NCBI GenBank assembly: GCA_018436595.1
Contig: JAHDLC010000012.1
Location: 26,953 to 90,952, forward strand
DNA length: 64,000 nucleotides
Reading direction: 5' to 3'
DNA from: Synergistaceae bacterium
Lineage (GTDB): Bacteria; Synergistota; Synergistia; Synergistales; Aminobacteriaceae
The translations under genes were made by a program, and so were the position numbers. Positions 17,630 to 36,851 of the stretch are shown in pieces (position 1 is the first letter of the stretch; each line of letters begins with the position of its first letter). The notes beneath the pieces are model-generated. The model worked only from the letters and a program-made list of their open reading frames with translations, was not told where the DNA came from and made no database searches.

Positions 17630-17633
17630 GCTC

Positions 17634-20034: not shown

Positions 20035-20046
20035 AAATCAGCGCAG

Positions 20047-20093
20047 CGCAAAAACAGGGCGGTCTCCCAAAGGGAGGCCGCCCTGTTTTTGCG
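20047..20093. terminator. Bidirectional terminator between TRAP operon and heterocycle operon
   Basis: CGCAAAAACAGGGCGGTCTCCC-AAA-GGGAGGCCGCCCTGTTTTTGCG near-perfect 22-bp stem with A/T tracts on both sides. Confidence 0.88.
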
Positions 20094-20109
20094 GTTCTGA
20101 AAAAAATGC

Positions 20110-21501
20110 CTACTTCATCCTGACGCCGATGCCCCGCTCCTCGTCCGTTCCGGGGACAAGGGAGTCGCAGAAGGCCGCGCAGATGCCCGCCACTGCCATG
20201 GGGGTCTTCAGGATGGCCCAGATCATGCCGCCGATTGTCTGCAGGAAGGGATTGTAGTCAGGGTTCATGAAGAACGCCTGGTTCTGCTCGATCCACCCGG
20301 GAAGACCCATGGCCATGAGGAACGAGAATCCCACGATGAGGACGTTCCGCTGGCTTCCCATGTCGGCCCGCATGAGTACCTGGATTCCCAGGGCGCCGAT
20401 GGTGCCGAAGAGGGCGATGTAGGCGCCGCCGATGACGGGCGACGGCATGGTGGCAACCAGGGCACCGAGCTTCGTGACGAAGCTCATGAGAATGAGGATG
20501 ATGGCTCCGGTGCGGACCACCCAGCGGGAAGCCACGCCGGTAAGGCCGATGAGACCGATGTTCTCCGTGTAGGAGGTGGTTCCCACCGATCCGAAGAGGC
20601 CGGACAGGGCGCAGTTGAGCCCTTCGGCGCCTATGCCCCGGCTGATGGTCGCCTCGTCGGGATCATCGAGTCCCGAAGCGTAAGAAACGGAGTGGTAGTC
20701 ACCCACCGATTCGATCATGACGGCAAAGAACCCGGCGAGCAGGGCACCGAAGGCCAGCATGCTGAACTTGGGGGCGCCCCAGGGCATGATCACGTTATAG
20801 CGGAACCACGGCGCCTCGGCGACCTTGCCCAGGTCAACGTGGGCGGGGTGGCCGGCGGGGAATATTCCCGCCCTGCTCAGCCCCAGGCAGACGAGGTAGG
20901 TCAGCACGATGGAGGAGAGAATGGCGAAGATGTTGGCGTACTTGTTCTTGCTCACGAGGCTGAAGATGAAGATGAGGGCCACCACCATGAGGGAGATGGG
21001 CCAGTAGTTCGCCGCGTTGAACTGGATGGCCGTGGGGGCCAGAGAAAAGCCTATGGCCATGATGACGGGGCCGATGACCACGGGCGTGATGATCTTCCTG
21101 ATGTAGCCGATGATCCCGGTGTAGCCTATCACCGAGAGGATGATGCCGCCCAGGATGAGACCTCCGCCCATGTACTGCATGACCACGTCGGGCCCCATGG
21201 CCTTGTAGGCCCCGATGATGGTCATTACCGACGGGATGAAGCTGAAGCTCGATCCCTGGACGATGGGAAGGCCGGTGCCGAACTTCGGGTGGGTCTGGAT
21301 GAGGGTGGCCACGCCCATCCCGAAGTAAACGCACGAAATCAGGGCGGCGATCTGGAGCTGGTCCATCCCCATGGCGGGGCCGAAGATCAGGGGAACGAGC
21401 GTTGTGGCGCCGAACAGGGTCAGAACGTGCTGGGCGCCCGCGAGGACCATGATGGGGAACGGGGGCCTGTCGAGCAATCCGTAGACTACTTTCTTTGCCA
21501 T
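20110..21501 (-). CDS. NCS2 (uracil/xanthine/urate) permease
   Basis: QHVL motif, PIVQGSSFSF, ESVGD, NCS2 signature TSYTENIGLIGLTG; AGGAGG RBS. Confidence 0.9.
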   Translation of the reverse strand: MAKKVVYGLLDRPPFPIMVLAGAQHVLTLFGATTLVPLIFGPAMGMDQLQIAALISCVYFGMGVATLIQTHPKFGTGLPIVQGSSFSFIPSVMTIIGAYKAMGPDVVMQYMGGGLILGGIILSVIGYTGIIGYIRKIITPVVIGPVIMAIGFSLAPTAIQFNAANYWPISLMVVALIFIFSLVSKNKYANIFAILSSIVLTYLVCLGLSRAGIFPAGHPAHVDLGKVAEAPWFRYNVIMPWGAPKFSMLAFGALLAGFFAVMIESVGDYHSVSYASGLDDPDEATISRGIGAEGLNCALSGLFGSVGTTSYTENIGLIGLTGVASRWVVRTGAIILILMSFVTKLGALVATMPSPVIGGAYIALFGTIGALGIQVLMRADMGSQRNVLIVGFSFLMAMGLPGWIEQNQAFFMNPDYNPFLQTIGGMIWAILKTPMAVAGICAAFCDSLVPGTDEERGIGVRMK

Positions 21502-21611
21502 TGGCGAAAACACCTCCTGTAAGTTAGGTATTCCTTCGAACGAACTTCAGTTTCTTCCCGGCGCACGGGAAATGCTTCACCACACCTCCTTTCGCGGAGA
21601 GTGTCAGTACC

Positions 21612-22991
21612 TCACATTTCGGGACCGTCATCCCCCGAGGCGAGGAAATGGTTGACCAGCAGGTTCATGAGGACACCCACGGTAACGGCTATGAACACGT
21701 TGTTGTTCACGTACATCCTCCAGAAGGGAGTCAGCGTGGCCACCCACTTGGCCCCGGCCGTGCTCGCGTAGAAAGGAAGCATGATGGCCATGCCGAGGGC
21801 CGTACCGGCCACGAGGTTATTTTTGAGATTCCGCTTCTCAGAGGTGATCACGTCAACGCCGGAGAACATGATGAGGCTTGCGCTGATGGCGAAAACCCCG
21901 CCGATGGCCGCCCTGGGAATTGAAGCGAGCATGACGGCGAGTTTCGGTGACAGGCCGTACAGGAGGAACATCACCGCGGCCACCTGGGTGACGAACCTGC
22001 TGGCGATCCCCGTGGCGGCTATGATGCCGATGTTCTGGGTGTAGCTCGTGACAGGCAGGGCCCCAAGAAAACCGCTGACCATGCACCCGGCACCTTCGGC
22101 GGCGATCCCCCGATTGATGTGCTTCACCCTGTACTTCTCGCCGGAAACGGCGCAGGTTGCGGCGTAGTCGCCAAGAGACTCGAAGATCGAGCCGATGTAC
22201 CCCGTGAGCCCCCCGATGATTGCAGCCACGACAAAGGTCACGGCATTGCCGGTGCCGTCAAGGCCCCTGAAGGGGAAAAGCTTCGGCATGGCGAACCAGG
22301 GAGCCTCGGCCACCCTAGCCCAGTCATATTCCCCGAGAAAAGTCGCCGCCGCCACCCCGACGAGGAGGGTGGACACGAGGATAAATCCTCTGGACAGGAT
22401 CCCCCTGCACCGGAACTTGAGAAAGAGGGCAACCAGGAAGGCTACGAGGGCGAGGATCAGGTGAAGCTGCTTGCCGCTGCCGAAGATCCACGTGAGGGAG
22501 ATCCTTGCGGCGACAAAGCCGATGGTGGCCACCACGGAACCGGTCACTACGGGAGGGATGAATTTCCTGATCTTTCCGAGCACCCTCGAGAATCCGAGCA
22601 GGGTTTCCAGCAGGCCGCCCACGAGCACCGATCCCCACATGGCGGTGAAGCCGTACATGGCAGTCACGGGCCCCATGGCGGAGAGCACAGAAGCGGACGG
22701 TCCCTGGACGATGGGAAGTCTGTTTCCCACTGTAGTCTGGATAAGTGTACCCACGCCCATGGCGAGGAAGCATGTGCTGATCATGACGGGCAGCACGTTC
22801 TCGGGAAGCCCCGCAAGGGTGACGAACATTCCTGCCCAGATGAAGGGGGTGAAATCAACCAGGGTCACCTGCCAGGCGTAAAACAGGGTTTCGAGAAAGG
22901 TCTTCGGCCGGTCCTCGATGCCGAGAACCGGCTTGATGGAACTGACCACTTCCTGTTCAAATACGAGCTGTTCCGGATCATAGGAAGCCAT
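21612..22991 (-). CDS. NCS2 family nucleobase permease (second, divergent)
   Basis: RLPIVQGPS, ESLGD, TSYTQNIGIIAATG; QV replaces the usual QH in TM1. Confidence 0.87.
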   Translation of the reverse strand: MASYDPEQLVFEQEVVSSIKPVLGIEDRPKTFLETLFYAWQVTLVDFTPFIWAGMFVTLAGLPENVLPVMISTCFLAMGVGTLIQTTVGNRLPIVQGPSASVLSAMGPVTAMYGFTAMWGSVLVGGLLETLLGFSRVLGKIRKFIPPVVTGSVVATIGFVAARISLTWIFGSGKQLHLILALVAFLVALFLKFRCRGILSRGFILVSTLLVGVAAATFLGEYDWARVAEAPWFAMPKLFPFRGLDGTGNAVTFVVAAIIGGLTGYIGSIFESLGDYAATCAVSGEKYRVKHINRGIAAEGAGCMVSGFLGALPVTSYTQNIGIIAATGIASRFVTQVAAVMFLLYGLSPKLAVMLASIPRAAIGGVFAISASLIMFSGVDVITSEKRNLKNNLVAGTALGMAIMLPFYASTAGAKWVATLTPFWRMYVNNNVFIAVTVGVLMNLLVNHFLASGDDGPEM

Positions 22992-23092
22992 TCTCTCTTT
23001 TCCTCCTTGCTATTTTTTCGTTGGCCCCGGCTGACCGGGCAGAGCCAGGATCCGGGAGAAGAAGCCACCGGGGGACCCTTCGCATCGAAATC

Positions 23093-25033
23093 TTACAATG
23101 TTTCCGGCCATCTCCCCTTCCGGAGATATTCCGCGATGTCCTGAGCGCCGATTTCCATCAGCCCTTCGGGGGTCTGGAGGCCCGTTTCAGGGTCCCATCC
23201 CCGTTCGCGGTAGAATTCATCAAGCATCCCGTCAAAGGACAACCTGTCCATCACCGCCCCGGCATAGGGACCGAAGGTGAGGGGTTCTTCCATGACCCGT
23301 TGGGGCAGAATGTCATCTTTCCTGCCGAACCCCGCGTGGACCGTATTGAAGGCTTTCTCCGCCTCCACGATCCACCGCCCCCTTTTCCACAGCTCTTCAG
23401 GGGTGAGCCCTTCGCAGCCGAAGGCCCCCAGGGCCCGGGACAGGGGTCCAATGTCCGCCAATGCAGGATCATACCATCCGGAAGTGAAATAGCACATCCC
23501 CACCGAGTCAACGATGGCCTTGTAAACTTCGTACCAGGCGACGAGCTTTCCCTTTCCCTTGCAGGAACCGGGAACTCCCGCATCTTCGTTGTCGAAGAGC
23601 CATTTTCCGGTCCAAGGGGGAATCTGCCGGTTTTCCGTCTGGGGGGATCCGTTGAGGTGTCCTCCCCCCCTGGCGCTGACCGCCATACCGAAGCCCCATG
23701 CCTTGTGGGACCGGACCCCCTGTTCGTTCAGACCGACGCCCTTGACGTGCATGGCGAACCGTTCGCTGCCCCGGCCCACAGTCTTCGCCGCCTCGAAAAC
23801 ACCTTCACCGAGAAGCCGGCCGAATCCCTTCCGCTCCGCGATCATTCCGATCAGGGCAAGGATCGCTTCACCGCTTCCCCAGCGGAGTTCCAGGCCGTCA
23901 GTATCCCCTGGGCCGAGGATCCCCCGCTCGAAACACTCGATGGCCCAACCCACTGCGGCGGCCACCCCGTCCACGTCAAGGCCCGACTCGTTGCAAAGCC
24001 TGTGGGCCTCGAGGAGAGCTGCCGGATCGTCCAGGTCGAGGTTGGATCCCAGGCCCCGGACCGAGTTGGCATGCATACCCTCCACCTCGATCCTCTCCCC
24101 GTCCCGTTCCGTTTCGTAGAGGTGGAGGCAGGAGAGGGGGCAATTCCAGCAGGCGGTCCGTTTCTTTTCAAGGGGACGGAAGGCCGCCTCGTTGATGCGG
24201 GCGGATTTTTCGCCGTCCCAGAATTCCTCCTGGAGATTCCTCACGGAAGTGGGGACTTTTCCGCTCCATCCGCCCACTCCGGCCATTCCGTGGGTTCCCC
24301 CGGTCCGAAGGGCGGCCGATGCGGATGACGCCCGAAGAACCCAGGAATATCTCCGGCTCTCCTCCAGGAAGGCATCCCCGTCTGCGGCGGCGGGATAAAC
24401 CCTGCCGGAGGCGGCCACCGCCTTAAGGTTCTTGAATCCCATGACGGCGCCGGAACCTCCCCACGCCAAGGCGTGGGCTTTGCCGATCATGACGCAGGAC
24501 ACGCCGGCAAGCCGTTCCCCCGCGATGCCGATGGAGGCCGTTTCGGCCCCTGGATCGCCGGTCACTCTCCGGACCGCGTCCGCCGCGGCGGAGACGGAAA
24601 GACCCCAAAGATCCGAACCGTCCCGTATTTCCACCTGACCGTCCTTCAGAAGTATCCAGCAGGGAGAGGAAGATCGTCCCGACACCACCAGGGCGTCGAA
24701 CCCGGCCTGCCGGAACTTCGGCCCAAGGTTCCCGCCTCCGCTGGAGGTTGATATGCCTCCGGTCAGAACGTTTTTCGTCACCAGTGCGATCCGGGAACTT
24801 CCAGGAAAGGAGGTCCCGGTCAGGCTTCCCGCCGCGAATACGAGAAGGTTTTCTGCGGACAGGGGATCCGTCCCGGGGGTGACGCCCCGGAGAAGCTCGA
24901 ATACACCGAATCCGCGACCACCGATATTTCCGTAGAAATCAGGAGTGTCGCGGATTTCCACCCTCCGCTCCGTCAGGTCCACCCGGGCGACTCTTCCCGT
25001 TTTAGCTTCCGGCACATCCGTCACATCCTTCAT
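23093..25033 (-). CDS. Aldehyde:ferredoxin oxidoreductase (AOR) family tungsten/molybdopterin enzyme, atypical active site
   Basis: RVDL..GGRG, DPLSAEN, AGFDA, GAVMGFKNLKA, CWNCPLSC, GLD, DSVGMCYF, RGWD; start may lie a few codons downstream. Confidence 0.88.
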   Translation of the reverse strand: MKDVTDVPEAKTGRVARVDLTERRVEIRDTPDFYGNIGGRGFGVFELLRGVTPGTDPLSAENLLVFAAGSLTGTSFPGSSRIALVTKNVLTGGISTSSGGGNLGPKFRQAGFDALVVSGRSSSPCWILLKDGQVEIRDGSDLWGLSVSAAADAVRRVTGDPGAETASIGIAGERLAGVSCVMIGKAHALAWGGSGAVMGFKNLKAVAASGRVYPAAADGDAFLEESRRYSWVLRASSASAALRTGGTHGMAGVGGWSGKVPTSVRNLQEEFWDGEKSARINEAAFRPLEKKRTACWNCPLSCLHLYETERDGERIEVEGMHANSVRGLGSNLDLDDPAALLEAHRLCNESGLDVDGVAAAVGWAIECFERGILGPGDTDGLELRWGSGEAILALIGMIAERKGFGRLLGEGVFEAAKTVGRGSERFAMHVKGVGLNEQGVRSHKAWGFGMAVSARGGGHLNGSPQTENRQIPPWTGKWLFDNEDAGVPGSCKGKGKLVAWYEVYKAIVDSVGMCYFTSGWYDPALADIGPLSRALGAFGCEGLTPEELWKRGRWIVEAEKAFNTVHAGFGRKDDILPQRVMEEPLTFGPYAGAVMDRLSFDGMLDEFYRERGWDPETGLQTPEGLMEIGAQDIAEYLRKGRWPETL

Positions 25034-25132
25034 ACTGTCGCTCTTTTTCTGTCTTCAATAAGTTCCGGGTGCAACCGGACGGTTTTGGGCGACCGGTTGC
25101 ACAAAAAAGATTCTATCACAGGCCCAGGAGAA

Positions 25133-27550
25133 TTACTTCCACTCCTTTATGGCGTTCTTGTACGACTGCTCCAGGGCGTAGGGATATTCCCAGAGGTCCG
25201 TTTCCCCCTTTTTCTTCGCCTGGATGGCCTTGTAGACCCGCTCCCTGCCGAGGGGATAGCTGTGGATCCTTATTCCCAGGGCATCAAAGAGGGCGTTGTC
25301 CATGGCGGGTGCGGGAGAGATCATGGAATGCTCGCCCACCCCCCTGTTGCCGTAGGGGGAAAGCTCCTCGGGGGTCTCCTCCCAGAAGGCGTCCAGGTCA
25401 GGAGGGACATCCAGAGCGGTGGCTATCTTGTAGTCCGTGAAATCGGGGGTAAGGAGTTTGCCGTGCTCGTCGTAGTACATGCCCTCCATGAGCCCCGCCG
25501 ATATGCCCTGGACGGTACCTCCCTCGATCTGTCCCTTCACGTTCACAGGCGAAATGGCCTTCCCCACGTCGTACCCCGCGGAGACCTTGTTCACCTCCAC
25601 GGCGCCGGTGGCCGGGTCCACTTCCACGTCGATGCCCACGGCGCCCACGGTGAAGTGGACCACGCTCTTGGGAGACTGCCCCGTTTCGGCGTCGGGATAG
25701 ATCACATCCGGCGGCACGAAGCTGCCCGTACCAATCACCGGGCCGCCCTTGTAGTTCCCGTCGGGCATGGGGAATCCGCTCTGGATATGTTCGTCAATGG
25801 GTTCCGCCTTGCCCTTTTTCCTGCATTTCACGATGCCATGCTCGATGGTGATGCTCTCGGGCTCCACCTGCCAGTACTCGGCGTACAGGGCGAGGAGTTT
25901 CTGTCGTGCGTCGGACGCCGCGCGCTTCACCGCCATGCCCATGGACCAGCAGGAGCGGCTGGCCACCGTCTGCCAGTCGTAGGGGTGACTCTGGGTGTCA
26001 GGGTAGGGGCACCTGATCTTTTCGATAGGAATGCCCAGTTCTTCGGAGACCATCTGCGAATAGGCGGTATAGGCCCCCTGCCCCATATCCATGGTGGCGG
26101 CGAGGACTTCCACCGTACCGTCCCCCAGAATCTTGACTATGGCGGAGGACGCCGCGTCCGCCGGCATGGCTGGAGCCTTCAGAGCGAGGGCGAAGCCCTT
26201 GCCCCGGACCCATCCTTTCCGGGTGGCGGGTTCCTTTTCGTTGAGCCTGATCCGGTCCACCACCTTGCCCACGATGGTGTCGAGGGCGTGGTTGTTCATG
26301 GGCATGCCCGTACATGTGGGCAGGCCGGGTTTCAGGATGTTCTTCAGCCGGAACTCGATGGGGTCCATGCCGACTTTTCTCGCGGCGATATCGATGACAA
26401 CTTCCATGGCGCCCATGAGCTCCGGAAGACCGAACCCCCGGTAGGCGCCGCCGAAGGGCTTGTTGGTGTAGACGGCGTAGCTGTCGGTCCAGACGTTGGG
26501 AATGTAGTAGCAGCCCGTGGAGGAATAGCCTGCGCTCCGGACGGGATTCGCCCCGTACTCGGCGGAAATGCCGGTGTCGAAGTAGAAGGTGTTCCGGATG
26601 GCGATGATTTTTCCGTCTTTGTCGATGCCAAGCTTGATCTTCGCCACATAGGCCTGGCGCACCCAGGATGTGAGGAGCACTTCCTCCCTGGGGATGTAGA
26701 GCTTCACCGGTCTGCCCCGGACGTCCGGGTTCATGGCCCCGGCGAGGCAGAGGGCCTCCACGGTCATGCCGGCCTTTCCGCCGAAACCTCCCCCGATGGG
26801 AGGGGCGATGACTCTGATTTTGCTCAGGGGATATTTCAGTCCCTTGGACACTATATCCCGGAGGGCGAAGGCCGACTGGGCGGTGGACCAGATCGTCAGG
26901 TCGCCCGTGGCGGGGTCTTCCCTGCAGATGCAGCAGTGGGGCTCGAGGAAGCCGTGGGCGATCTGCGGGCAGTTCACCGCTTCTTCCACGATGTATTCCG
27001 CCTCGGAGAAGGCCTTGTCCACGTCGCCCCTGCGGATACGGAACCAGTTGCCGATGTTCGTTCCGGGGAAGGGGGTGATGAAGTCCACGTGGTCGTAGGT
27101 TTCCAGTTCCGGATGCACCAGGACCGAGTTGTCCGTGGCGGCCTTGACGGGGTCGAAGATGGGGGGCAGCTCCCGGTATTTGGCGGTGACCTTGAGCATC
27201 CCCTCCTCCGCCGCCTCTTCGGACTCCGCGATCACGAGAGCCACCGGTTCGCCCATGTAGCGGACCTTGCCGATGGCCATGGGGGTGCGGTCCATGAGGT
27301 AGAGGCCGAAGCGGTGGACAAAATCCTTTCCGGTAACCACCTTGACGACGCCCTTTACCTTGAGGGCTTCGGAAAAGTCGATGGACAGGATCTCACCGTG
27401 GGCCACCGTGGAGCGGACCGCTCTCGCGTGGAGCAGCTCCGGCCCGAAACGGAGGTCATCAGTAAAGGCCAGGGTCCCCGCTGCCTTTTCAACATCGTAT
27501 TTTCTCTCGGTCCACGCTCCGATGCCGTTTTTCGTCACGGTCTGTTTCAT
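25133..27550 (-). CDS. Xanthine dehydrogenase family molybdopterin-binding subunit
   Basis: FLEPH, GGGFGGK, YRGFG, DMGQG, TVASRS, GQIEGG..QG, GVGE. Confidence 0.92.
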   Translation of the reverse strand: MKQTVTKNGIGAWTERKYDVEKAAGTLAFTDDLRFGPELLHARAVRSTVAHGEILSIDFSEALKVKGVVKVVTGKDFVHRFGLYLMDRTPMAIGKVRYMGEPVALVIAESEEAAEEGMLKVTAKYRELPPIFDPVKAATDNSVLVHPELETYDHVDFITPFPGTNIGNWFRIRRGDVDKAFSEAEYIVEEAVNCPQIAHGFLEPHCCICREDPATGDLTIWSTAQSAFALRDIVSKGLKYPLSKIRVIAPPIGGGFGGKAGMTVEALCLAGAMNPDVRGRPVKLYIPREEVLLTSWVRQAYVAKIKLGIDKDGKIIAIRNTFYFDTGISAEYGANPVRSAGYSSTGCYYIPNVWTDSYAVYTNKPFGGAYRGFGLPELMGAMEVVIDIAARKVGMDPIEFRLKNILKPGLPTCTGMPMNNHALDTIVGKVVDRIRLNEKEPATRKGWVRGKGFALALKAPAMPADAASSAIVKILGDGTVEVLAATMDMGQGAYTAYSQMVSEELGIPIEKIRCPYPDTQSHPYDWQTVASRSCWSMGMAVKRAASDARQKLLALYAEYWQVEPESITIEHGIVKCRKKGKAEPIDEHIQSGFPMPDGNYKGGPVIGTGSFVPPDVIYPDAETGQSPKSVVHFTVGAVGIDVEVDPATGAVEVNKVSAGYDVGKAISPVNVKGQIEGGTVQGISAGLMEGMYYDEHGKLLTPDFTDYKIATALDVPPDLDAFWEETPEELSPYGNRGVGEHSMISPAPAMDNALFDALGIRIHSYPLGRERVYKAIQAKKKGETDLWEYPYALEQSYKNAIKEWK

Positions 27551-27565
27551 GGCTGACACCTCCCG

Positions 27566-28063
27566 TCACCGCGCCCTGCCGGGGATGTGCCCCAGCTCGC
27601 GCATGACCGCGGCGGCTTTGTGAACCGCCCTGAAGATGGGGATGTACCCCGTGCACCGGCACAGGTTTCCCGCGAGGGCGACCCGGATTTCCTCTTCCGT
27701 GGGGTCCGGGGTCTTCCGGAGAAAGGCGTAAGCCGACATGATCATCCCCGGGGTGCAGAAACCGCACTGGATGGCTCCCTCGTCCACGAAAGCCTGCTGG
27801 ATGGGATGAAGCTCGCCCTTCGGGCCCACAAGCCCCTCCACCGTCAGGACGGATTTCCCTTCAGCCTCGAGGGCGAGGACCATGCAGGATTTCTGGGCCA
27901 GGTCGTCGATCACCACGGTGCAGGTGCCGCACTCGCCTTCTTCACAGCCCCGCTTGACGCTGGTGACGCCGTATTCCCGGAGCGCCCGGAGAAGGGTCGT
28001 CCGGGGTTCCACCGAAAAGGTCACCGGTTTGCCGTTGAGTATGAAGTGAACGTCTCTTTTCAT
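27566..28063 (-). CDS. Xanthine dehydrogenase family 2Fe-2S subunit
   Basis: CEEGECGTC, QCGFCTPG, GNLCRCTGY. Confidence 0.95.
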   Translation of the reverse strand: MKRDVHFILNGKPVTFSVEPRTTLLRALREYGVTSVKRGCEEGECGTCTVVIDDLAQKSCMVLALEAEGKSVLTVEGLVGPKGELHPIQQAFVDEGAIQCGFCTPGMIMSAYAFLRKTPDPTEEEIRVALAGNLCRCTGYIPIFRAVHKAAAVMRELGHIPGRAR

Positions 28064-28938: not shown

Positions 28939-29057
28939 GAATACCACCTCCCGAAAAGACACAGGCGAACGGCACGGCACAGGGAATGCCGCCGCAGCGG
29001 CCGCCTGCCCTATGGAAAAAGGGCGTCCCTTCAAAAGGGACGCCCGAAAGAACCGGA

Positions 29058-29861
29058 TTATTCCTCTGCGAAAGCGACGATGCGGGAGATGCAGGATTCC
29101 CCGCCGACGAAGCGCCAGGGGAAGCAGCCGATGGTGACGCGCTTGCCGCTGACGAGGTCGATGTCTCCCGCCACGCACTCGGCGTGGATCAGGTTGCTCG
29201 GGAAGAGGGCAATGTGCATCACCTGGTAGTCCTCTTCAGGGAAGAAGTCGTCGAGGCCCTTGCCGTACTTCTTCTTCAGGTGGGCGTCGGCCTGCCTGGC
29301 CTGGACGGGCATCCACTCGCGGATCTTGGTGTTCATGGGGTGGTCAGCGGAGCCGCAGTCCACGCCGATCCACTTGAACTTTCTCTTGAGGGCCCACGTG
29401 GCGAACTCCCTGGTGGGTCCGGGGTGCTTCACCATGTACCGGACTTCGTCCGCCTCGGGCTCGTTCCAGCCATACCGGTGGTAGCCGGTGTTGATGATGA
29501 GGATGTCGCCGTCATGGATGTCCGCCCGGTCCTCGAGGTCCTTGGGGGTGTAGATGCCGTAGTCCTCGGCGATGTCCTTGATATCCACCACGACGCCGGG
29601 TCCCACGAGGAAATCCTTCAGGGGCAGGCTGGCGATGTCGCCGCCGTGGCCGCAGAAGTGGATGGGCCCGTCGAGGTGGGTCCCCACGTGGTTGGAGTGG
29701 GTGACAAGCTGCCCGTTGGCTCCGTTGGGGGCCAGGCGCTTGAAGTATTTCACCTGCAGGGGTTCATAGGTGGGCCAGGGCGGAGTCTGCACGCCGATGG
29801 GAATGGTGAGGTCATACACCTTGATGTTGCTCCAGTTCTTCAGTTCGAGACTATTGCTCAT
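29058..29861 (-). CDS. Cyclase-family metal-dependent amidohydrolase (kynurenine formamidase/isatin hydrolase-like)
   Basis: YDLT, HVGTHLDGPIH (HxGTHxDxPxH), GDILIINTG, GVD..SAD, HIALF. Confidence 0.88.
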   Translation of the reverse strand: MSNSLELKNWSNIKVYDLTIPIGVQTPPWPTYEPLQVKYFKRLAPNGANGQLVTHSNHVGTHLDGPIHFCGHGGDIASLPLKDFLVGPGVVVDIKDIAEDYGIYTPKDLEDRADIHDGDILIINTGYHRYGWNEPEADEVRYMVKHPGPTREFATWALKRKFKWIGVDCGSADHPMNTKIREWMPVQARQADAHLKKKYGKGLDDFFPEEDYQVMHIALFPSNLIHAECVAGDIDLVSGKRVTIGCFPWRFVGGESCISRIVAFAEE

Positions 29862-29906
29862 TCAAAAGCGCCTCCTTTGAGATTGAATCAATCCAGTCTT
29901 CCCGGG

Positions 29907-31166
29907 TCATTCGCCCAGGTACCGGTCAGCGAACGCCCCGGCGGCCTTGAGAAAAGCCTCCGCGGGCATCCGGACAATTCCAGCGCCCACCTGTCCCTTT
30001 CCGGGTTCCCTGTGGGCCGCGCCGGTATCAAGAACGGGAGTCACTCCCGTCTCCGCCACCTTGAGAATGTCGATCCCCGTGGGGGTTCCCCTGAAGTTCA
30101 GGGCGGGGATGGTGAACATGTTGTTTTCGCCCCCCGTGATCTCGTACATTTCGAGGGTGTAGTTGGCCGCGTCCTTCGGCGTTCCGCCGATGAACTGGAC
30201 GATGGCCGGGGCTGCGGCGAGGGCGAATCCTCCCACGCCGTAGGTTTCCATGATGGCGCTGTCACCGATGTCCCGGTTGGTGTCCTCCCTGGTGAAGCCG
30301 GGGAAGAGAAGCACATCGGGGAGGGCCGCCTGACAGGTGAACCAGTCATCTCCGAGGCCGGACACCTTGATGCCGAACTCCGTGCCGTTCCGTGCCATGA
30401 TGGTGACGAGGCTGGAACCCTCCACTCCGTGGGCCGCTTCCGTGGACGCCTTGGCGGCCGCCATGGCGAGATTCAGGAAGAAATGGTCGTTCTTGTCGAT
30501 GAACCGGATGACCTCGGCGAGTTCCGCTGCGTTCTTGCAGGTTTCGACGAGGAAGGGGGCGATGGCCCTCAGGAAGAGGGACGTTCCCGCCTTGTTCCTG
30601 TTGTGGAGCTCGTCTCCCATGTGGAGCGCCTGGGCGACAATGTTTTTCACGTCCACCTCCTGTCCCCGCTCGACGCTGAGCCGGATTCCGGCGTCAAGGA
30701 CAGGGTACAGAACCTTCTCCATCCAGCGGAGCCTCTCGATGACCTCGGGGGCGAAGGCCCCCATGCGGAGCACCTTGCCGAGTCCCTCGTTCATGGTGAC
30801 ATAGGATGTGTTGCCCGCCGTCCTGTTCTCAAGGACGAAGACGGGCATGCTGGGAGAGACGATTCCCGCCATGGGACCCACCGCGTGGTGATGGTGGCAG
30901 GGGTCGAAGGTGATAGCCCCGCCGGCGGCGAGTTTTTCAGCTTCCTCGGGAGTGTCCGCCCACCCTTCGTACATGCATGCGGCCATAACGCCTCCCCGGA
31001 TGGGTCCGGACGCCGTCTCCCACGTAAGAGGAGGTCCGGCGTGGAGAAGCATCCTGTCCTTCATTCCCGGCACGGTATCCTTTGCCTTCCCCATGCCCAC
31101 CAGCAGAGGCTGGGCGGAAAGCAGCCGGGAAAGGGCCTCCCCGTTCGCCTTTTCGATGTCGATCAC
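29907..31166 (-). CDS. DUF1116 protein (YahG/YlbE-AllG-like)
   Basis: LHAGPP, PCHHHHAVGPMAG, MGDELHNRN, NDHFFLN, RNGTEFG, DIGDSAIMETYG.GG, GQVGAG. Confidence 0.88.
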   Translation of the reverse strand: MIDIEKANGEALSRLLSAQPLLVGMGKAKDTVPGMKDRMLLHAGPPLTWETASGPIRGGVMAACMYEGWADTPEEAEKLAAGGAITFDPCHHHHAVGPMAGIVSPSMPVFVLENRTAGNTSYVTMNEGLGKVLRMGAFAPEVIERLRWMEKVLYPVLDAGIRLSVERGQEVDVKNIVAQALHMGDELHNRNKAGTSLFLRAIAPFLVETCKNAAELAEVIRFIDKNDHFFLNLAMAAAKASTEAAHGVEGSSLVTIMARNGTEFGIKVSGLGDDWFTCQAALPDVLLFPGFTREDTNRDIGDSAIMETYGVGGFALAAAPAIVQFIGGTPKDAANYTLEMYEITGGENNMFTIPALNFRGTPTGIDILKVAETGVTPVLDTGAAHREPGKGQVGAGIVRMPAEAFLKAAGAFADRYLGE

Positions 31167-31168
31167 TG

Positions 31169-31351
31169 TCAGTTTCCTCCCTTCCTGAGCTTTTTCAGCC
31201 GGGCGAGGAGATCCCCGCCCGCAGCGGAGGGCTTCCAGTCCATGGAGACCGCCTCCGCCTTCTGGGTCTTCAGATCGGCGTAAAACTGTTCCACGCCGAT
31301 ATTCACAACCTTGGGTCCTTCCTTGAGCAGTTTCGTCACGGACATGGTCAT
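31169..31351 (-). CDS. Small FdrA/YahG-associated protein (60 aa)
   Basis: KVVNIGVEQFYADLKTQ..DWKP motif; overlaps the fdrA stop (ATGA); GGAGGG RBS. Confidence 0.7.
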   Translation of the reverse strand: MTMSVTKLLKEGPKVVNIGVEQFYADLKTQKAEAVSMDWKPSAAGGDLLARLKKLRKGGN

Positions 31352-32907
31352 CCCTCCAGGATCATGGCCGCCAGGCGGGCCGCCCGGGCGTTGCTTTCGC
31401 AGACATGCACGCCCAGCTCCTCGAGAATACGGCGCTGCTCCGACGCATTCTGGGGATCTGTATCCACGCCGCAGATGGACGCCACGAAGGCTATCCGATC
31501 GCCGGCGGCGGACCGGGCCTTGCGGATCCCTTCAGCGAGCCCCGCGGCGGGATCGTCGTTGCACCCGTAGCCGAGGACCACGTCGAAGAGGATCACTCCC
31601 ACTTCGGGGTCCTTTGCCTCCTCGTAGATCCGCTCCGCCCGCAGGGAGACGTCGATCATGGGATGGAGCCGCCCCTGGGTGAATTCGTCCTCGCCGTAAT
31701 CCACCATGGAATGCTGTTCGCTCCTCAGGCTGTCTTCGAGCTTCATCTCTTTTTCCAGTGGGGTGTTGCTCCGGATGGGACCAAGGATGTCCCGGGCGAT
31801 GAGCTGTCCCTCGTAGCACAGTGTCCCGCCGGAATAGAGCCCCCGGAGGAATCCCTTCCGCCTCCCGATGGTTTCGGCCCTCTGCCGGAGCGACTCATAG
31901 TCCCGAAAGAGGTTCTCCCTCGCGCGGGCCCCGTCCTCGCCTTTTGCAAGAGCGGCGGCCACGGCGGCGGTTTCCTCGAGCTCCCGGCAGATGAACACGC
32001 CGTCGGAATCACCCTTCGCCTCGCCTCCGATGAAGCCGAGAACGGCAGGCTTCTTCCCCGCCTTCACAGTCTGGAGGATCTTCTGCTCCACTTCCGGTGC
32101 GGGAGGCTTGCCGAGGACGGTAAGCACCTCCACCTCGTCGTCGGCGAGAAGGGCGTTCACCGCCTGGAGACACATGATGCCCCCCACCTCGCGGCGGACG
32201 TCCCTGCCTCCCGTCCCGATACCGTGGAGGACGCCCACTCCCCGCCTTGCGAGCTGGACGTGAACCTCCTGGAGCCCGGTTCCTGCAGCCGCGACGATGC
32301 TCACGGGTCCCGGAGGGCAGGCGTTCGCCATGCCCAGAGCCACGCCCCGGACGATGATGGTGCCGCAGTCGGGGCCCATGACGAGCAGCCCTTTTTCGGC
32401 GGCAGCCTTCTTTATCTCCACTTCCTTCTCCACCGGCACGTTGTCGGAGTAGAGCATGACGTTGAGTCCCTTCCCGATGCAATCCATGGCGACGTCGCCG
32501 GCGTATTTTCCCGCCACGGAGATCAGGGCGAGGTTCGCGTCGGGGAGGATCGAGAGCGCTCCGTCAAGGCTCTTGGGACGGTAGTCGCCCCCTGAATCCG
32601 CTTTTCTCCCGGGGGGATTGGCGAGGTATTCCTTCGCTTTTTCAAGGGCTCCTTCCAGGAGAGCCTCCCTTTCCCCTTCAGGGGCATCGGTCTTAACGGC
32701 AATGATGAGGTCGTTGGGGGTGGCGTCCACCCCGCCGAGGTCGAAACCTCCCGAGCCCATGATCTTGTAGTTCGCCTCGGTTCCCATGCTCAGCGAGGCC
32801 ACGGACACTCCTTCAGTCTTGAGAAGCTCCTTCGCCACAAGCATGAGGGTGACGCTGTCATAATAGGTCCTTCGGATAATTTGAATCCGCTGATTCGAAG
32901 AGGGCAC
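31348..32907 (-). CDS. fdrA: Acyl-CoA synthetase-like FdrA (YahF/AllF family)
   Basis: YYDSVTLM, GTEAN, ANLALISVAG, YSDNV, MGPDCGT, GTGGRD, GLYSGGTL, DEFTQGRLHPMID. Confidence 0.92.
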   Translation of the reverse strand: MPSSNQRIQIIRRTYYDSVTLMLVAKELLKTEGVSVASLSMGTEANYKIMGSGGFDLGGVDATPNDLIIAVKTDAPEGEREALLEGALEKAKEYLANPPGRKADSGGDYRPKSLDGALSILPDANLALISVAGKYAGDVAMDCIGKGLNVMLYSDNVPVEKEVEIKKAAAEKGLLVMGPDCGTIIVRGVALGMANACPPGPVSIVAAAGTGLQEVHVQLARRGVGVLHGIGTGGRDVRREVGGIMCLQAVNALLADDEVEVLTVLGKPPAPEVEQKILQTVKAGKKPAVLGFIGGEAKGDSDGVFICRELEETAAVAAALAKGEDGARARENLFRDYESLRQRAETIGRRKGFLRGLYSGGTLCYEGQLIARDILGPIRSNTPLEKEMKLEDSLRSEQHSMVDYGEDEFTQGRLHPMIDVSLRAERIYEEAKDPEVGVILFDVVLGYGCNDDPAAGLAEGIRKARSAAGDRIAFVASICGVDTDPQNASEQRRILEELGVHVCESNARAARLAAMILEG

Positions 32908-32927
32908 GGTTCCTCCTCCTTTCCCGC

Positions 32928-33620
32928 TTATCCGGTCCGCTCCCCGCAGAGGGCTTCCGAAAGCCCTGCAAGCCAGGCCCGGCCGGAGGTATGACCCCAG
33001 TCCGCAATACTCCCGGCACTTCCCGTTACTGCCACCGGATCCTCCGATGCAAGAGCGCCGAGAAGCCGCTTTGCCCGAAACCAGATTCCGCCTGCGAGGG
33101 TGTCCCGGAGCATTTCTTCAGAAAGCCAGGTCGTTTGGCCGGGAACAGGATGAAAAGGAACGGCTTTTCCCTGCCAGATCATCCCCGAGGCAAGGCCGGA
33201 GAGAAAGTCGTCCCCGGCGGGGGTGCTGCCCGGCCCGCGGCCGATGAGTTCATCCCAGGTCCGCCGGATGACCGGCTCCTGCAAATCCTCGAGCTCATCG
33301 GCAAGAAAATCCCGCCACTCGCCCACGAGCCCCCTCCAGCGCGGGTTCATCTTTCCCGCCGGAAGGGCGGGATCGTAGATCACCTGAACGCCCTCGGGAA
33401 CGACAATAACGTTTTCCCCTCCACGGAAATTGGGGAGCGTTTTCACGAGAAAGGTTCTCGGCCCCATGTCCTCTGCCGAGGTCACGAGGGACCATCGTCT
33501 CAGGCCTTCTTTTTCCTCGAGATTGACTGTTCTTCTATAAATTTCCCGGACGGAGAGAGAGACCGGTTCTTCGCCGGTATCGGCACTCCGTCCGGAGACG
33601 GGGATTGCAATTCCGATCAG
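32928..33620 (-). CDS. DUF2877 protein (YahE/YlbF-AllH-like); start uncertain
   Basis: IGRGPGSTPAGDDFLSG and GHTSG motifs; no canonical start codon upstream of the conserved-looking N-terminal segment. Confidence 0.75.
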   Translation of the reverse strand: MIGIAIPVSGRSADTGEEPVSLSVREIYRRTVNLEEKEGLRRWSLVTSAEDMGPRTFLVKTLPNFRGGENVIVVPEGVQVIYDPALPAGKMNPRWRGLVGEWRDFLADELEDLQEPVIRRTWDELIGRGPGSTPAGDDFLSGLASGMIWQGKAVPFHPVPGQTTWLSEEMLRDTLAGGIWFRAKRLLGALASEDPVAVTGSAGSIADWGHTSGRAWLAGLSEALCGERTG

Positions 33621-34801
33621 ACGACGCCGTCCTTCTTGAGGGCCTCGAATTCCTCGGCGCCGAGACCGAGGAAGGAGGTGAGCACCTCTTCGGTATGCTG
33701 GCCGAGAAGGGGGGCGGGTTCCTTTACCTCCGCCGGCGTGTCGGAAAACTTCACAGGAACGCCGGGAATCTTCATGGCTCCCGCCACGGGGTGAACCACG
33801 TCCACGATCATCTTTCGGGCGAGCACCTGGGGATCGTGCACCACGTGGGCCATGTCGTTGATGGGCCCGCTGGGGACATTCACCTTCTCGAACTCGCCAA
33901 GCCAGTGCTCCGAGGTATTCTTCATGGTCCTCTCTTCGAGGATTTCCTTCAGGGCGTGGAAATGCTCCACCCTGGCGGGGTTGTCGGCAAAGCGGGGATC
34001 GTTCACATATTCTTCCATGCCGAGCACGGCGCACATTCTCTTCCAGATTTCATCGTTCCCCACGGCGATGTTCATGGCACCGTCCGACGTCGCGAGGGTG
34101 GTGAAAGGGGAGATGGAGGGATGGCGGTTGCCGATGGGGTGGGGGATCTCTCCGCTGACCAGGTACCTGGAGACGGCGTTCTCGAGGACGGCCACCATGC
34201 AGTCGAGCATGGCTACATCCACGAGCTGGCCCCTGCCGGTACGGATCCTGGCGTTCACGGCGGATAGAACGCCGATGACGGTGAACAGTCCGGCGAAGAT
34301 ATCCGCCACGGAGCTTCCCACTTTCGTGGGGCTGTGCTCGTCCGGTCCGGTGACGCTCATCATGCCGCCCATGCCCTGGATGATGAGGTCATAGGCGGGG
34401 CGGGAACTGTAGGGTCCCGTCTGGCCGAAGCCCGAGCTTGCGGCGTAGATGAGCCGGGGATTGACCTTCCTGAGATCTTCGTATCCGACGCCGAGTTTGT
34501 CCATGGTTCCCGGCTTGAAGTTTTCTATGAGGATGTCGCTTTTTTTCGCAAGGTCCTTCAGGATCTCCTTGCCCCTGGGGTGTTTCAGGTTCAGCGTAAC
34601 GCTTCTCTTGCCCCGGTTGAGGCTCATGAAATAGGCGCTCTCGCCCTTCTGGAAGGGAGGATAGGCCCGGGTATCGTCCCCTCCGTCGGGACGTTCGATC
34701 TTGATCACTTCCGCCCCCAGGTCGGCGAACATCATGGCGGCAAAGGGGCCCGCAAGAACGCGGGTCATGTCCAGTACAACAAGTCCTTCCAACGGTTTCA
34801 T
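33617..34801 (-). CDS. Family III CoA-transferase (CaiB/BaiF/Frc-like)
   Basis: LAGP, DLGAEVIKIE..GDDTR, NRGKRS, ENFKPG, GFGQTGP, DVAMLD (catalytic Asp), APLLGQHT. Confidence 0.93.
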   Translation of the reverse strand: MKPLEGLVVLDMTRVLAGPFAAMMFADLGAEVIKIERPDGGDDTRAYPPFQKGESAYFMSLNRGKRSVTLNLKHPRGKEILKDLAKKSDILIENFKPGTMDKLGVGYEDLRKVNPRLIYAASSGFGQTGPYSSRPAYDLIIQGMGGMMSVTGPDEHSPTKVGSSVADIFAGLFTVIGVLSAVNARIRTGRGQLVDVAMLDCMVAVLENAVSRYLVSGEIPHPIGNRHPSISPFTTLATSDGAMNIAVGNDEIWKRMCAVLGMEEYVNDPRFADNPARVEHFHALKEILEERTMKNTSEHWLGEFEKVNVPSGPINDMAHVVHDPQVLARKMIVDVVHPVAGAMKIPGVPVKFSDTPAEVKEPAPLLGQHTEEVLTSFLGLGAEEFEALKKDGVV

Positions 34802-35146
34802 AGGGCAAACACCTCCAAAATTCTAGCTGCGGCGCACATGGTTCCAGCCCGCTCTCCTCACTGCTCCCCGGCCCCGTCAAATGTAAGTTTGTGACAAGAT
34901 GACGGGAACCGCACGCCTCTCTCGAAATGTCATCGCTATCCAGCTTCGGCGCGGACCGGGGTGGAATCCCCCGGGTGCCGGGAAAAACGCGAAATGGCAC
35001 AAATTCATGTTTTACATAGAGTTTATTTTATCATACACTATGTTTGGTCCCAAGGAATTACAATGTCAACACATAACATAAATGCTCTTCCATTCCCGCA
35101 CTCCGTGACACCTGCCGGGAGGAGGATGCACACAAAAAAAAGAGGT

Positions 35147-36712
35147 ATGTCCTGCATGATCGTCGCCGATCTTCTGAAAAAGAACCTTTTTCCGGACTTC
35201 CAGATTCTTGCCGGCAGCGGCGGCATGGGCCGCGAGATCAGCGCCGTCTCAGTCCTTGAGGCTCCCGATGCGGACCACTGGATGCGCGGCGGCGAGTTTC
35301 TCGTGGGAAGCGGTTTTGTTTTCAGGGACGACCCCGAGCAGCTCACTCCCCTCATCAGGAGAATGAACGGCAAGGGAATCGCGGCGGTGGGCTTCAAGCT
35401 CGACCGCTTCCACCACAAGCTGCCGGAAAGCATGACCGAGGAGGCGGACATCCTCCAGCTCCCCATCCTGGAGATACCTATGCACTACCGCTGGACGGAC
35501 ATCATCGACGTGATCCACACTCACCTGGTCCAGGAGCGGAACAGGGACCGTCCCGACGACCTGAGCGCCTTCTGGGAGGAAGGGCTCGACTTCCGGAAGC
35601 TCATGTCCGGCTTCGCCCAGAATCTCAGGAGAGACCTCCTGGTTCAGGCCCCCCAGCTTGATCTCAACAACCTTTTTCTCGCCGACGGTTCCATCCTCGG
35701 CGGAGAAGACGTGCAGAAATGCCTGGATCTTCCTGTGGTGCAGGAGACCGCCCTTCCCAAAAAAGGGCAGGTCCATTCCTGCGTGGAGGTCCGGAACAGC
35801 GGGCAGGTCCAGCGGTTCGCCGCCTACCGGCTGCGGCTCGACACCCCCATCTCCATCTTCGTGGTCCTCTCCCCGGGTGAACTCTCCCCGTCGGCCCGGC
35901 AGGAGCGCATGGTGCTGAGAGCCCTGACCATGCTCAGGGCGTCGGCCCTCGAGATCGCCATCGTGTCCAGCAAGAAAGTGATGAAGAAGGAGCGGTTCCT
36001 GGAGGGGCTGTGCTTCGGCCTCTACTGCGATCCCTCCATGATCCGGATCAATCTCAGGGAGCTGGGAATTCCCCTCTCCCTTCCGGCGTCAGTTCTCATC
36101 GCCTCCACCGCCGACAGACTTTCCACGCCCCGCTGGACATCACCGTCAGGACTGAGCTACAGGCTCGGCAACACATGGGTCACCCTTATCCCCTCTTCCA
36201 CCATCGAGGACCTGAAGAACGCCCTCCAAAAGGAAGGGCATGCCCTGGGGTTTCATTTTTCTTTCGGCTCTCCCGCCGCGGACCTCATGGAAATTTCCCG
36301 GTCTTACCAGGAGGCCCGGAGAACCTTTTCCCTGCTTCGGGATTTCTCCCTTCCCCCCGGGGTCTACTTTTACGAGGAACTCTCCCTGTACGGCCTCCTG
36401 CAGAGCATGTCGAAGCTGCCCGAGGCACGGGATGTCTGGGAGAGATTCTGGGAACCCCTGGAAAAAGACTCAAACCAGGCCCGGCGGAGCCTGCCCCTGA
36501 AGGAGCTTGCTTCCATGCTCGTGGCCAGGGATTTCAACGCCAAGTCATGCGCCGACGGGCTCCACCTCCATTACAACACCGTGAGGAACTACCTCAGGGA
36601 GATCGAGACGGTGCTGAAAGTGGACCTCAGCAATCCCCACCATCGTCTCGGCATCACCCTGGGCTGCCACATCAACGGAAGCATCGCCGGGCAACGCTCC
36701 TCCCTGGGGTAA
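35147..36712 (+). CDS. PucR family transcriptional regulator
   Basis: N-terminal PucR ligand domain (LAG..G..REI..VSVLEAPD..WMRGGE) and C-terminal HTH (LHLHYNTVRNYL); divergent from the heterocycle operon. Confidence 0.9.
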   Translation: MSCMIVADLLKKNLFPDFQILAGSGGMGREISAVSVLEAPDADHWMRGGEFLVGSGFVFRDDPEQLTPLIRRMNGKGIAAVGFKLDRFHHKLPESMTEEADILQLPILEIPMHYRWTDIIDVIHTHLVQERNRDRPDDLSAFWEEGLDFRKLMSGFAQNLRRDLLVQAPQLDLNNLFLADGSILGGEDVQKCLDLPVVQETALPKKGQVHSCVEVRNSGQVQRFAAYRLRLDTPISIFVVLSPGELSPSARQERMVLRALTMLRASALEIAIVSSKKVMKKERFLEGLCFGLYCDPSMIRINLRELGIPLSLPASVLIASTADRLSTPRWTSPSGLSYRLGNTWVTLIPSSTIEDLKNALQKEGHALGFHFSFGSPAADLMEISRSYQEARRTFSLLRDFSLPPGVYFYEELSLYGLLQSMSKLPEARDVWERFWEPLEKDSNQARRSLPLKELASMLVARDFNAKSCADGLHLHYNTVRNYLREIETVLKVDLSNPHHRLGITLGCHINGSIAGQRSSLG

Positions 36713-36851
36713 GCGGCTTCCCGGCGTCGCCGGACATCAAGGCTCCATTCCCGTTTCCGGAAAACAGGAGGGACGAATATTCCCGGAGACCGAAATGTGT
36801 TACAATTGCATCAGTACCGCATACGACTCATTTTCAGGAGGGATTCCGGAC

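Follow-up and report, generated by a model that had tools for sequence, protein, structure and literature searches.

Gene content of the cluster

The sequence analysed here, referred to below as the window, is a stretch of 64,000 nucleotides from a Synergistaceae bacterium (assembly GCA_018436595.1, contig JAHDLC010000012.1, positions 26,953 to 90,952) with a G+C content of about 62%; its nearest AllG relatives in the genome collection, at 85% identity, come from metagenome-assembled genomes (MAGs) of Aminobacteriaceae/Synergistaceae, which places the organism among the uncultured Synergistota. Our subject is a catabolic gene cluster on the minus strand of this window, between 20110 and 34801, in which 12 open reading frames (ORFs) lie divergent from a PucR-family regulator gene. 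In order of transcription they encode a CoA-transferase, AllH, AllF, a 60-aa ORF, AllG, a cyclase, the FAD, 2Fe-2S and Mo subunits of a hydroxylase, an aldehyde:ferredoxin oxidoreductase (AOR) and two NCS2 permeases. All gene families named in the original prediction, which was made from the letters of the sequence, were recovered with Pfam, and its count of 12 minus-strand genes stands only with the 60-aa ORF at 31169–31351 included. The stop/start overlaps that it had noted are present in two gene pairs, the FAD/2Fe-2S subunits (28060–28063) and AllF/60-aa ORF (31348–31351), each of 4 nt, and 2 nt separate the stop of the 60-aa ORF from the start of AllG. The features, by position in the window, are as follows.

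20045–20095, both strands: bidirectional intrinsic terminator between the DctP gene (plus strand) and the last cluster gene (minus strand), from sequence and folding
20110–21501, minus: NCS2/NAT permease 'a', 463 aa from ATG (Pfam Xan_ur_permease, 8e-81)
21612–22991, minus: NCS2/NAT permease 'b' (Pfam match), in a strain-variable segment
23093–25033, minus: tungsten-type AOR (AFOR_N and AFOR_C), accessory
25133–27550, minus: Mo-hydroxylase large (molybdopterin) subunit of the xanthine dehydrogenase (XDH)/CODH family (Pfam Ald_Xan_dh_C, MoCoBD_1 and MoCoBD_2)
27566–28063, minus: Mo-hydroxylase 2Fe-2S subunit (Fer2 and Fer2_2)
28060–28938, minus: Mo-hydroxylase FAD subunit, 292 aa (FAD_binding_5 and CO_deh_flav_C)
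29021–29045, minus: terminator- or attenuator-like hairpin followed by U5, between the cyclase and XDH genes, from folding
29058–29861, minus: cyclase-family (PF04199) metal-dependent amidohydrolase (Pfam 4e-34)
29907–31166, minus: AllG/DUF1116 subunit (Pfam AllG, 4e-97)
31169–31351, minus: 60-aa ORF, detached AllF C-terminal segment (match to E. coli AllF)
31348–32907, minus: AllF/FdrA subunit, succinyl-CoA-synthetase-alpha-like (CoA_binding and Ligase_CoA)
32928 to about 33554, minus: AllH/DUF2877 subunit, start uncertain (Pfam AllH, 6e-19)
33617–34801, minus: family III CoA-transferase (CaiB), dicarboxylate clade (Pfam 3e-138)
34802–35155, both strands: divergent control region, from promoter scan and Synergistota alignment
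35156–36712, plus: PucR-family regulator, 518 aa (PucR, GGDEF_2 and HTH_30)

A conserved core of hydroxylase, cyclase and AllFGH genes

A scan of one genome per species gave 80 AllG loci, which were searched with the window proteins (tblastn) and in which all ORFs were clustered; L092–L095 were examined beyond these, making about 84 loci in all. AllF is encoded in 69 of the 80 loci, the cyclase in 58 and the XDH large subunit in 52, and the usual gene order is (AllH), AllF, AllG, cyclase and then, further along, the FAD, 2Fe-2S and Mo subunits. The loci come from at least ten phyla (Synergistota, Thermotogota, Elusimicrobiota, Caldisericota, Chloroflexota, Bacteroidota, Kiritimatiellia, Myxococcota, Bacillota, Cloacimonadota and others), and the core cluster is also found in Moorella thermoacetica (L092). 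Among cultured organisms, M. thermoacetica strain GCA_001874065.1 and isolate M3-1 (CP159918) are carriers. A gene order that recurs over at least ten phyla is beyond chance. Taken together with the identity among the cyclases and the motifs common to the XDH subunits, described below, it indicates a functional unit composed of a hydroxylase, a cyclase-family hydrolase and an AllFGH-type enzyme. We are confident that this unit is a conserved and uncharacterised module for the catabolism of ureide heterocycles. The idea of an undescribed N-heterocycle cluster, put forward from the window sequence, is coherent with these data, and no characterised pathway matching it, nor any description of such a pathway, was found in the full-text literature searched, which is an incomplete collection.

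Two of the genes that had been placed in the pathway do not belong to this core. The AOR, whose nearest solved structure is the Pyrococcus furiosus AOR (1aor, 4e-85), is encoded in none of the 80 loci, and it is missing, together with permease 'b', from the sister contigs L001 and L003. In the alignment, window positions 21642–25070 are replaced in the sister contigs by about 150 bp (L001 16097–16247) that leave the last ten codons of permease 'b', and on this comparison the absence is a deletion in the sister strains. The segment carrying the AOR and the Gln-type permease was found in no other species among the 80 loci, and we no longer treat the AOR as an integral part of the pathway. CaiB is encoded in only 14 of the 80 loci and never together with c13, a protein family that takes its place elsewhere, and so is not a core gene either. 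The proposed succession of hydroxylation, ring opening by the cyclase and transfer of a ureide to AllFGH fits the conserved synteny; the participation of AOR and CaiB as core components was not borne out. The AllG protein itself occurs in identical form on at least 23 metagenome contigs.

Several relatives carry additional genes around the core. Sister contig L004 (821–4460) encodes an extra three-subunit XDH-family enzyme (784, 269 and 160 aa) between an ABC binding-protein gene and PucR, which the window lacks. A second, FAD-less Mo-hydroxylase pair (large and 2Fe-2S subunits) lies directly upstream of AllH in the Synergistota loci L012 (1–6983), L014 (1–7281), L016 and L017, as does a cytosine-deaminase-like amidohydrolase, and in L012 and L014 this group is preceded by a BMP-type ABC transporter.

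The AllF, AllG and AllH subunits

Three adjacent genes of the cluster belong to the FdrA/AllF, DUF1116/AllG and DUF2877/AllH families. AllF and AllH are 39% and about 29% identical to their E. coli counterparts, and AllG is 44% identical over its full length, compared with at least 56% to the 80 retrieved AllG relatives, which are mostly cyclase-linked. AllF scores 463 bits on the NCBIfam FdrA subfamily model (cut-off 433) and matches PDB entry 3dmy at 1e-83. The E. coli AllFGH oxamic transcarbamylase, built from the same three subunit families encoded side by side as here, is the only characterised member; it interconverts oxalurate plus phosphate and carbamoyl phosphate plus oxamate and needs no CoA (PMC11326118). 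By analogy, the common chemistry would be phosphorolysis of an N-acylurea to carbamoyl phosphate. Since the E. coli enzyme cleaves the N-acylurea oxalurate, the module described here should arrive at an N-acylurea in two steps, a hydroxylation and a ring hydrolysis.

The genomic setting differs from that in E. coli. There the genes belong to an allantoin system with allB, allC, allD and allE in the context and allK, whereas in the window their neighbours are genes for an XDH-like hydroxylase and a cyclase-family hydrolase, and Pfam detected none of the allB, allC, allD and allE families among the cluster genes. The likely substrate here, as predicted from context, would be ureidomalonate, compared with oxalurate in E. 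coli.

In contrast to E. coli AllF, the C-terminal segment is here a separate 60-aa ORF, which matches E. coli AllF residues 504–550 (38% identity, 3e-7) and is called by gene callers on all six sister contigs. In loci L007–L086 this segment of about 50 aa is a free-standing ORF in 20 loci of Synergistota/Thermotogota and forms the AllG N-terminus in 30 loci of other phyla, a shifting attachment that hints at a seat at the AllF–AllG interface. The start of AllH is less clear. Homology to relatives continues in the upstream direction for at least 23 codons beyond the called starts (GTG at 33485, ATG at 33467), and from 33554 up to the CaiB stop there is no in-frame ATG, GTG or TTG, only ATT, ATC and CTG. 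Either AllH uses a non-canonical start or its N-terminus has been shortened (about 185 aa, against 250–280 aa in relatives).

The Mo-hydroxylase and the cyclase

Pfam identified all three XDH-type subunits of the Mo-hydroxylase, those for Mo-pterin, FAD and 2Fe-2S; the FAD subunit starts at a GTG behind a GGGAGGTGG ribosome-binding site, and the same start is called on L001. The best NCBIfam matches of the three are XdhA, XdhB and XdhC, all below cut-off, and none of the window subunits reaches the equivalog cut-offs for xanthine dehydrogenase (XdhA, PucD, XdhB). The large subunit falls below every NCBIfam equivalog cut-off; its best match is XdhA (451 versus 780 bits), and the 4-hydroxybenzoyl-CoA reductase model scores nearly equally. 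In the PDB it comes closest to 4-hydroxybenzoyl-CoA reductase, CoxL and quinoline oxidoreductase, none of them an XDH. In the active-site region, the motifs GGGFGxK-AG (GGGFGGK-AG in the window) and G-x-GEH are common to all cluster-linked large subunits, where E. coli XdhA has K-QD and GEPP. The first of these motifs may bear on the equivalents of the bovine xanthine-binding residues Glu802 and Arg880, a tentative mapping that was not used as evidence. We propose, on context, that the enzyme may be a uracil/thymine C6-hydroxylase.

The cyclase matches PF04199 at 118 bits (cut-off 23), and its translation contains HVGTHLDGPIH, which corresponds to the HxGTHxDxPxH metal motif. It shares this fold family and motif with kynurenine formamidase and isatin hydrolase, the latter being a precedent for opening of a lactam ring in the PF04199 family. 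In sequence, the window cyclase is only remotely similar to these enzymes: the likeness to kynurenine formamidase is 1e-8 against PDB, and the NCBIfam arylformamidase model TIGR03035 gives 43.8 bits against a cut-off of 223. A search recovered 2826 relatives at E ≤ 1e-20, none informatively named. Identity among the cluster-linked cyclases is 53–96% across phyla, with synteny to AllG in 58 loci, and by these comparisons the protein belongs to a distinct subfamily that is tightly conserved and goes together with AllFGH and XDH. We propose that it could be the ring-opening hydrolase that converts barbiturate to ureidomalonate.

Permeases and neighbouring genes suggest a pyrimidine as the probable substrate

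Permease 'a', the cluster-linked permease conserved in related Synergistota, has the NAT motif E-N-I-G, the type found in E. coli UraA and RutG; XanQ and UacT carry Q-N instead, and permease 'b', with Q-N-I-G, is of the purine type. The NAT motif has been described as a determinant of specificity (PMC5972032). Glutamate occupies its first position in all 21 cluster-linked NCS2 permeases of the 80 loci, which fall into two distant clades, and also in the NCS2 permeases of L092, L093 and L095.

In the Moorella thermoacetica locus, AllH, AllF, AllG, a cyclase 73% identical to that of the window and the FAD, FeS and Mo subunits are followed by an NCS2 permease, and then by PucR, c13, a thiolase and DUF35. 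On the uracil-permease equivalog model NF007995 (cut-off 477) this permease reaches 650 bits, and it has exactly the NAT motif of UraA. The cluster stands directly behind pyrK-pyrD-pyrE, of which pyrD and pyrE exceed their equivalog cut-offs. In five loci, several of them in Synergistota and one in Chloroflexota, the cluster is flanked by a gene for a CodA-like amidohydrolase, whose match to the cytosine deaminase subfamily is below cut-off. Taken as comparative context, these signals suggest that the substrate is more probably a pyrimidine, with a C3 (malonyl) product, than a purine with an oxamate or oxalyl product; the latter, which the original prediction had entertained, fits less well.

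The genes downstream of the core vary and are mutually exclusive, with either CaiB (with or without the CN-hydrolase c20), the CN-hydrolase c26 (Elusimicrobiota) or c13. The CaiB of the window is nearest to the NCBIfam models for succinate-glutarate and oxalate CoA-transferases, all below cut-off, and its nearest PDB entries, 4ed9, YfdE and SUGCT, place it in a dicarboxylate clade; we propose that it may perform a lineage-specific step of the lower pathway, the activation of malonate or malonamate. CN-hydrolases occur in 21 loci, and eight of the 14 loci with CaiB also contain c20; none contains c13. The c13 family comprises proteins of about 241 aa with 28 invariant residues (for example L048 12226–12951 and Moorella L092 18100–18747) and follows the cyclase in 26 loci, never together with CaiB or either CN-hydrolase. 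It has no Pfam or NCBIfam match, and a profile of 25 proteins found nothing among PDB sequences even at E ≤ 10. Its companions are a thiolase and DUF35 or a Na+-translocating decarboxylase of MmdA, biotin carrier and OadB.

Decarboxylases and carbamate kinases appear in several of these neighbourhoods. Directly upstream of AllF, eight Chloroflexota loci encode an MmdA-type carboxyltransferase together with a biotin carrier and an OadB Na+ pump. In L094 (10001–20334, GCA_900198705.1) a cyclase orthologue (74% identical) with no AllFGH or XDH beside it adjoins an M42/M20-type hydrolase and a complete Malonomonas-type biotin/Na+ malonate decarboxylase, an arrangement that may represent a hydrolytic variant of the pathway. 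A malonyl-CoA decarboxylase in L075 (PF05292, 1e-104) was rejected as a linked gene, being separated from AllFG by SNF, SIS/CBS and BacA genes. Directly after the cyclase gene of L093 come those for a carbamate kinase, which shares 41% identity with E. coli AllK, and a c20 CN-hydrolase, and in L069, the sole locus among the 80 with a tblastn match to E. coli AllK, the kinase gene lies inside the cluster, just downstream of the cyclase region.

A proposed oxidative route for uracil and thymine

From this gene content we propose a route in which the NCS2 permease would import the base and the XDH-like Mo-hydroxylase would hydroxylate it at C6, converting uracil to barbiturate and passing electrons to an anaerobic acceptor. 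The cyclase-family metallo-amidohydrolase would then open barbiturate to ureidomalonate, an N-acylurea. Uracil fits because C6 hydroxylation and one hydrolysis give ureidomalonate, which is oxalurate plus one CH2. AllF (with the 60-aa piece), AllG and AllH would cleave ureidomalonate by phosphorolysis to carbamoyl phosphate and malonamate, analogously to the action of E. coli AllFGH on oxalurate, and a carbamate kinase encoded elsewhere could make ATP from the carbamoyl phosphate. Malonamate would be deamidated and activated, in this lineage by the CaiB-type CoA-transferase and in relatives also by a CN-hydrolase, and malonyl-CoA would be decarboxylated to acetyl-CoA; decarboxylation of malonyl-CoA or malonate would add a sodium gradient. 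PucR would control the divergent promoter, and the AOR and the purine-type permease 'b' would be a recent, strain-variable addition outside the pathway. As written, for uracil/thymine, we give this route an even chance of being correct.

Several observations weigh against it. Overall, permease 'a' is nearer to the pbuX (xanthine-permease) subfamily, below that cut-off, and its TM8 motif ESVGD is XanQ-like. The substrate of the XDH cannot be read from its sequence, and the PucR regulator family was originally described for purine catabolism. The pyrKDE adjacency in Moorella may be incidental. In L095 genes resembling ygeW, ygeX and ygeY adjoin the cluster, so that a mixed-purpose nucleobase island is possible. 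The trio of c13, thiolase and DUF35, found in 14–15 loci, has no place in the proposed steps. The 64-kb window contains no tblastn match to E. coli AllK and no CN-hydrolase, decarboxylase or c13, so the lower pathway has to rest on genes outside it. All of the steps are inferred from sequence and context.

Alternative substrates and chemistries

The same enzymatic logic could serve another ureide or lactam heterocycle with a different carbon skeleton, such as a modified or 5-substituted pyrimidine, an orotate or dihydroorotate derivative, hydantoin, parabanate, a pterin or lumazine, and the thiolase/DUF35/c13 module would then handle a longer acyl-CoA. That trio suggests C–C cleavage of a CoA ester, which malonate would not need, and the second Mo-hydroxylases and CodA-like deaminase beside the cluster in some Synergistota, together with alternative linked transporters (BMP-type ABC, SSF and MFS), are in line with a different substrate. 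The uracil-permease equivalog in Moorella and the malonate decarboxylase beside the cyclase orthologue nevertheless favour the simplest pyrimidine. Hydantoins, moreover, are normally carried by NCS1 and not NCS2 transporters, and formation of parabanate from hydantoin would, on chemical reasoning, need two oxidations. We regard this alternative, taken as a whole, as unlikely.

Less likely still is a purine route, in which the Mo-hydroxylase would convert xanthine or hypoxanthine to urate or an oxopurine, the cyclase would open the ring, AllFGH would cleave oxalurate or a purine ureide and CaiB would take oxamate or oxalate. The PucR-family regulator, the XdhA/XdhB/XdhC matches (below cut-off as they are), the Synergistota-type permease nearest pbuX, the extra Q-type permease of the window strain, the ygeW/X/Y-like neighbours in L095 and the closeness of CaiB to the oxalate CoA-transferase YfdE too would all suit such a route, as would the action of E. 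coli AllFGH on oxalurate (PMC11326118). Against these stand the Glu-type NAT motif of every linked permease and the gene content: the cluster is without allantoinase, allantoate amidohydrolase, AllD or AllE equivalogs and ygfK, ssnA or hyuA, and the (methyl)malonyl-CoA and malonate decarboxylases, uracil-permease equivalog, pyrKDE and CodA-like gene of orthologous clusters misfit a C2 oxalyl product. On chemical grounds, one hydroxylation and one hydrolysis do not give oxalurate from a purine.

The least probable alternative, that the AllFGH homologue is an ADP-forming acyl-CoA synthetase or an acyl-urea:CoA transferase (for example, ureidomalonate + CoA to malonyl-CoA + urea), would explain clusters with malonyl-CoA decarboxylase yet no CoA-transferase, such as those of Chloroflexota that hold an Mmd-type decarboxylase, AllFGH, cyclase and c13 and neither CaiB nor CN-hydrolase, and would suit both the succinyl-CoA synthetase alpha domains (CoA_binding and Ligase_CoA) retained in AllF and the linkage of carbamate kinase in only 2 of about 84 loci examined, but the sole characterised member gives carbamoyl phosphate without CoA (PMC11326118), and the carbamate kinase and CN-hydrolase straight after the cyclase in L093 fit carbamoyl phosphate and amide products.

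Comparison with known pathways

The oxidative conversion of uracil proposed above passes through the same intermediates as the aerobic pathway of Rhodococcus and Mycobacterium, from uracil to barbiturate, ureidomalonate and malonate, and likewise begins with an oxidative hydroxylation. The aerobic enzymes are uracil/thymine dehydrogenase, barbiturase and ureidomalonase (EC 1.17.99.4, 3.5.2.1 and 3.5.1.95). The aerobic barbiturase has the AtzD/cyanuric-acid-hydrolase fold, whereas the ring opener proposed here is a non-homologous PF04199 cyclase, and no member of the AtzD/barbiturase-fold Pfam family is found among the cluster proteins. Ureidomalonase releases urea by hydrolysis, while AllFGH-type cleavage would be phosphorolytic and potentially ATP-yielding. 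The hosts also differ in being strict anaerobes in which malonate would be tied to a CoA-transferase or to Na+-pumping decarboxylases. To our knowledge, current accounts of the anaerobic breakdown of pyrimidines invoke the reductive (dihydropyrimidine) route, and reports of the oxidative barbiturate route are confined to a few aerobic actinobacteria that use different enzymes. The cluster would encode a new form of the oxidative pyrimidine pathway, one that probably yields ATP.

The reductive uric acid pathway of E. coli and gut anaerobes is likewise encoded by an anaerobic nucleobase cluster around an XDH-family enzyme and involves ureide cleavage and carbamoyl-group chemistry (10.1101/2025.05.19.654654). 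It uses XdhD, YgfK, SsnA, HyuA, YgeW, YgeY and YgeX; by Pfam content, YgfK, SsnA, HyuA, YgeW, YgeY and YgeX are all missing from the window cluster, which agrees with the reported absence of the usual allantoin and ygeW/ssnA partners. The paper on the uric acid pathway makes no mention of a cyclase, FdrA or CoA (10.1101/2025.05.19.654654).

In its broadest form the pyrimidine proposal states that many strict anaerobes, Synergistota and the acetogen Moorella among them, ferment uracil/thymine by an undescribed, energy-conserving oxidative route with three new enzyme functions, a claim to which we give slightly less than an even chance. The three functions (a pyrimidine-C6 Mo-hydroxylase, a cyclase-fold 'barbiturase' and an AllFGH-type 'ureidomalonate phosphorylase'), put forward as one joint claim, are held just as tentatively. 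If correct, the proposal would describe a widespread, ATP-yielding fermentation of nucleobases by anaerobes that would matter in digesters, sediments and guts. A large subfamily of cyclases and one clade within the 'xanthine dehydrogenase family' would also gain functions, and the newly discovered AllFGH, so far tied to a single substrate, would become part of a whole class of N-acylurea phosphorylases. The module is of interest because it is widespread and because the proposal is open to direct testing in Moorella thermoacetica, which is available in culture.

Transcription signals and regulation

The bidirectional terminator that had been predicted to close the cluster, at 20045–20095, was confirmed by folding on both strands, with energies of -45.6 kcal/mol (plus strand) and -40.3 kcal/mol (minus strand), z of about -8 and A5 and T5 flanks. 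Its stem has one mismatch; a simple terminator scan missed it, and it was established by reading of the sequence and by folding. Within the cluster, the hairpin at 29021–29045 consists of an 11-bp, G+C-rich stem followed by U5 (-22.2 kcal/mol, z -5.2). A hairpin with a U-rich tail is present at the equivalent site in L012 (Synergistota) and in Moorella L092; the same folding comparison did not find one in L045. This strong, terminator-like internal structure makes a single 12-gene transcript, as first envisaged, doubtful, and the cluster may comprise two transcription units or one attenuated unit.

Promoter-like sites were found by scanning on both strands of the divergent region at 34802–35155. 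In alignment, the block at 35020–35090 between PucR and CaiB is near-identical in four Synergistota species. It contains an inverted repeat, ATGTCAT-N3-ATGACAT in the relatives and an imperfect copy in the window (35063–35079), as well as a TATGATAAAAT box; the block may be the operator for PucR and a promoter. A PucR gene also stands beside the cluster in Moorella, in a Thermoanaerobacteraceae contig and in an Ignavibacteriales MAG. An Rfam scan of 19800–36900 at E ≤ 1 gave no riboswitch or leader family, the sole match being a chance internal ribosome entry site, and the 215-nt leader of the CaiB operon was rejected as an RNA element, as its conservation between Synergistota species is poor.

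Neighbouring genes in the window

Nearer the start of the window, at 1879–8710, a short-chain fatty acid transporter, an amidase-signature enzyme, a class V aminotransferase, a 5'-nucleotidase-like protein and an Ldh_2 dehydrogenase are encoded in a row. A malonamidase role for the amidase is possible in principle, with no link to the cluster. The two Ldh_2 proteins of the window (7607–8710 and 14672–15826) score about 165 bits on the AllD model, against 496 bits, and were rejected as AllD; together with the amidase-signature protein they were also set aside as candidates for AllD or ureidomalonase, being below equivalog cut-offs, 5–25 kb away and among unrelated neighbours. The second of these dehydrogenases belongs to a plus-strand unit at 14672–20034 that also encodes a LarA-type nickel-pincer racemase, for which the nearest model is malate racemase (below cut-off), and the TRAP transporter DctQ/DctM/DctP. 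The unit as a whole resembles a separate 2-hydroxyacid module.

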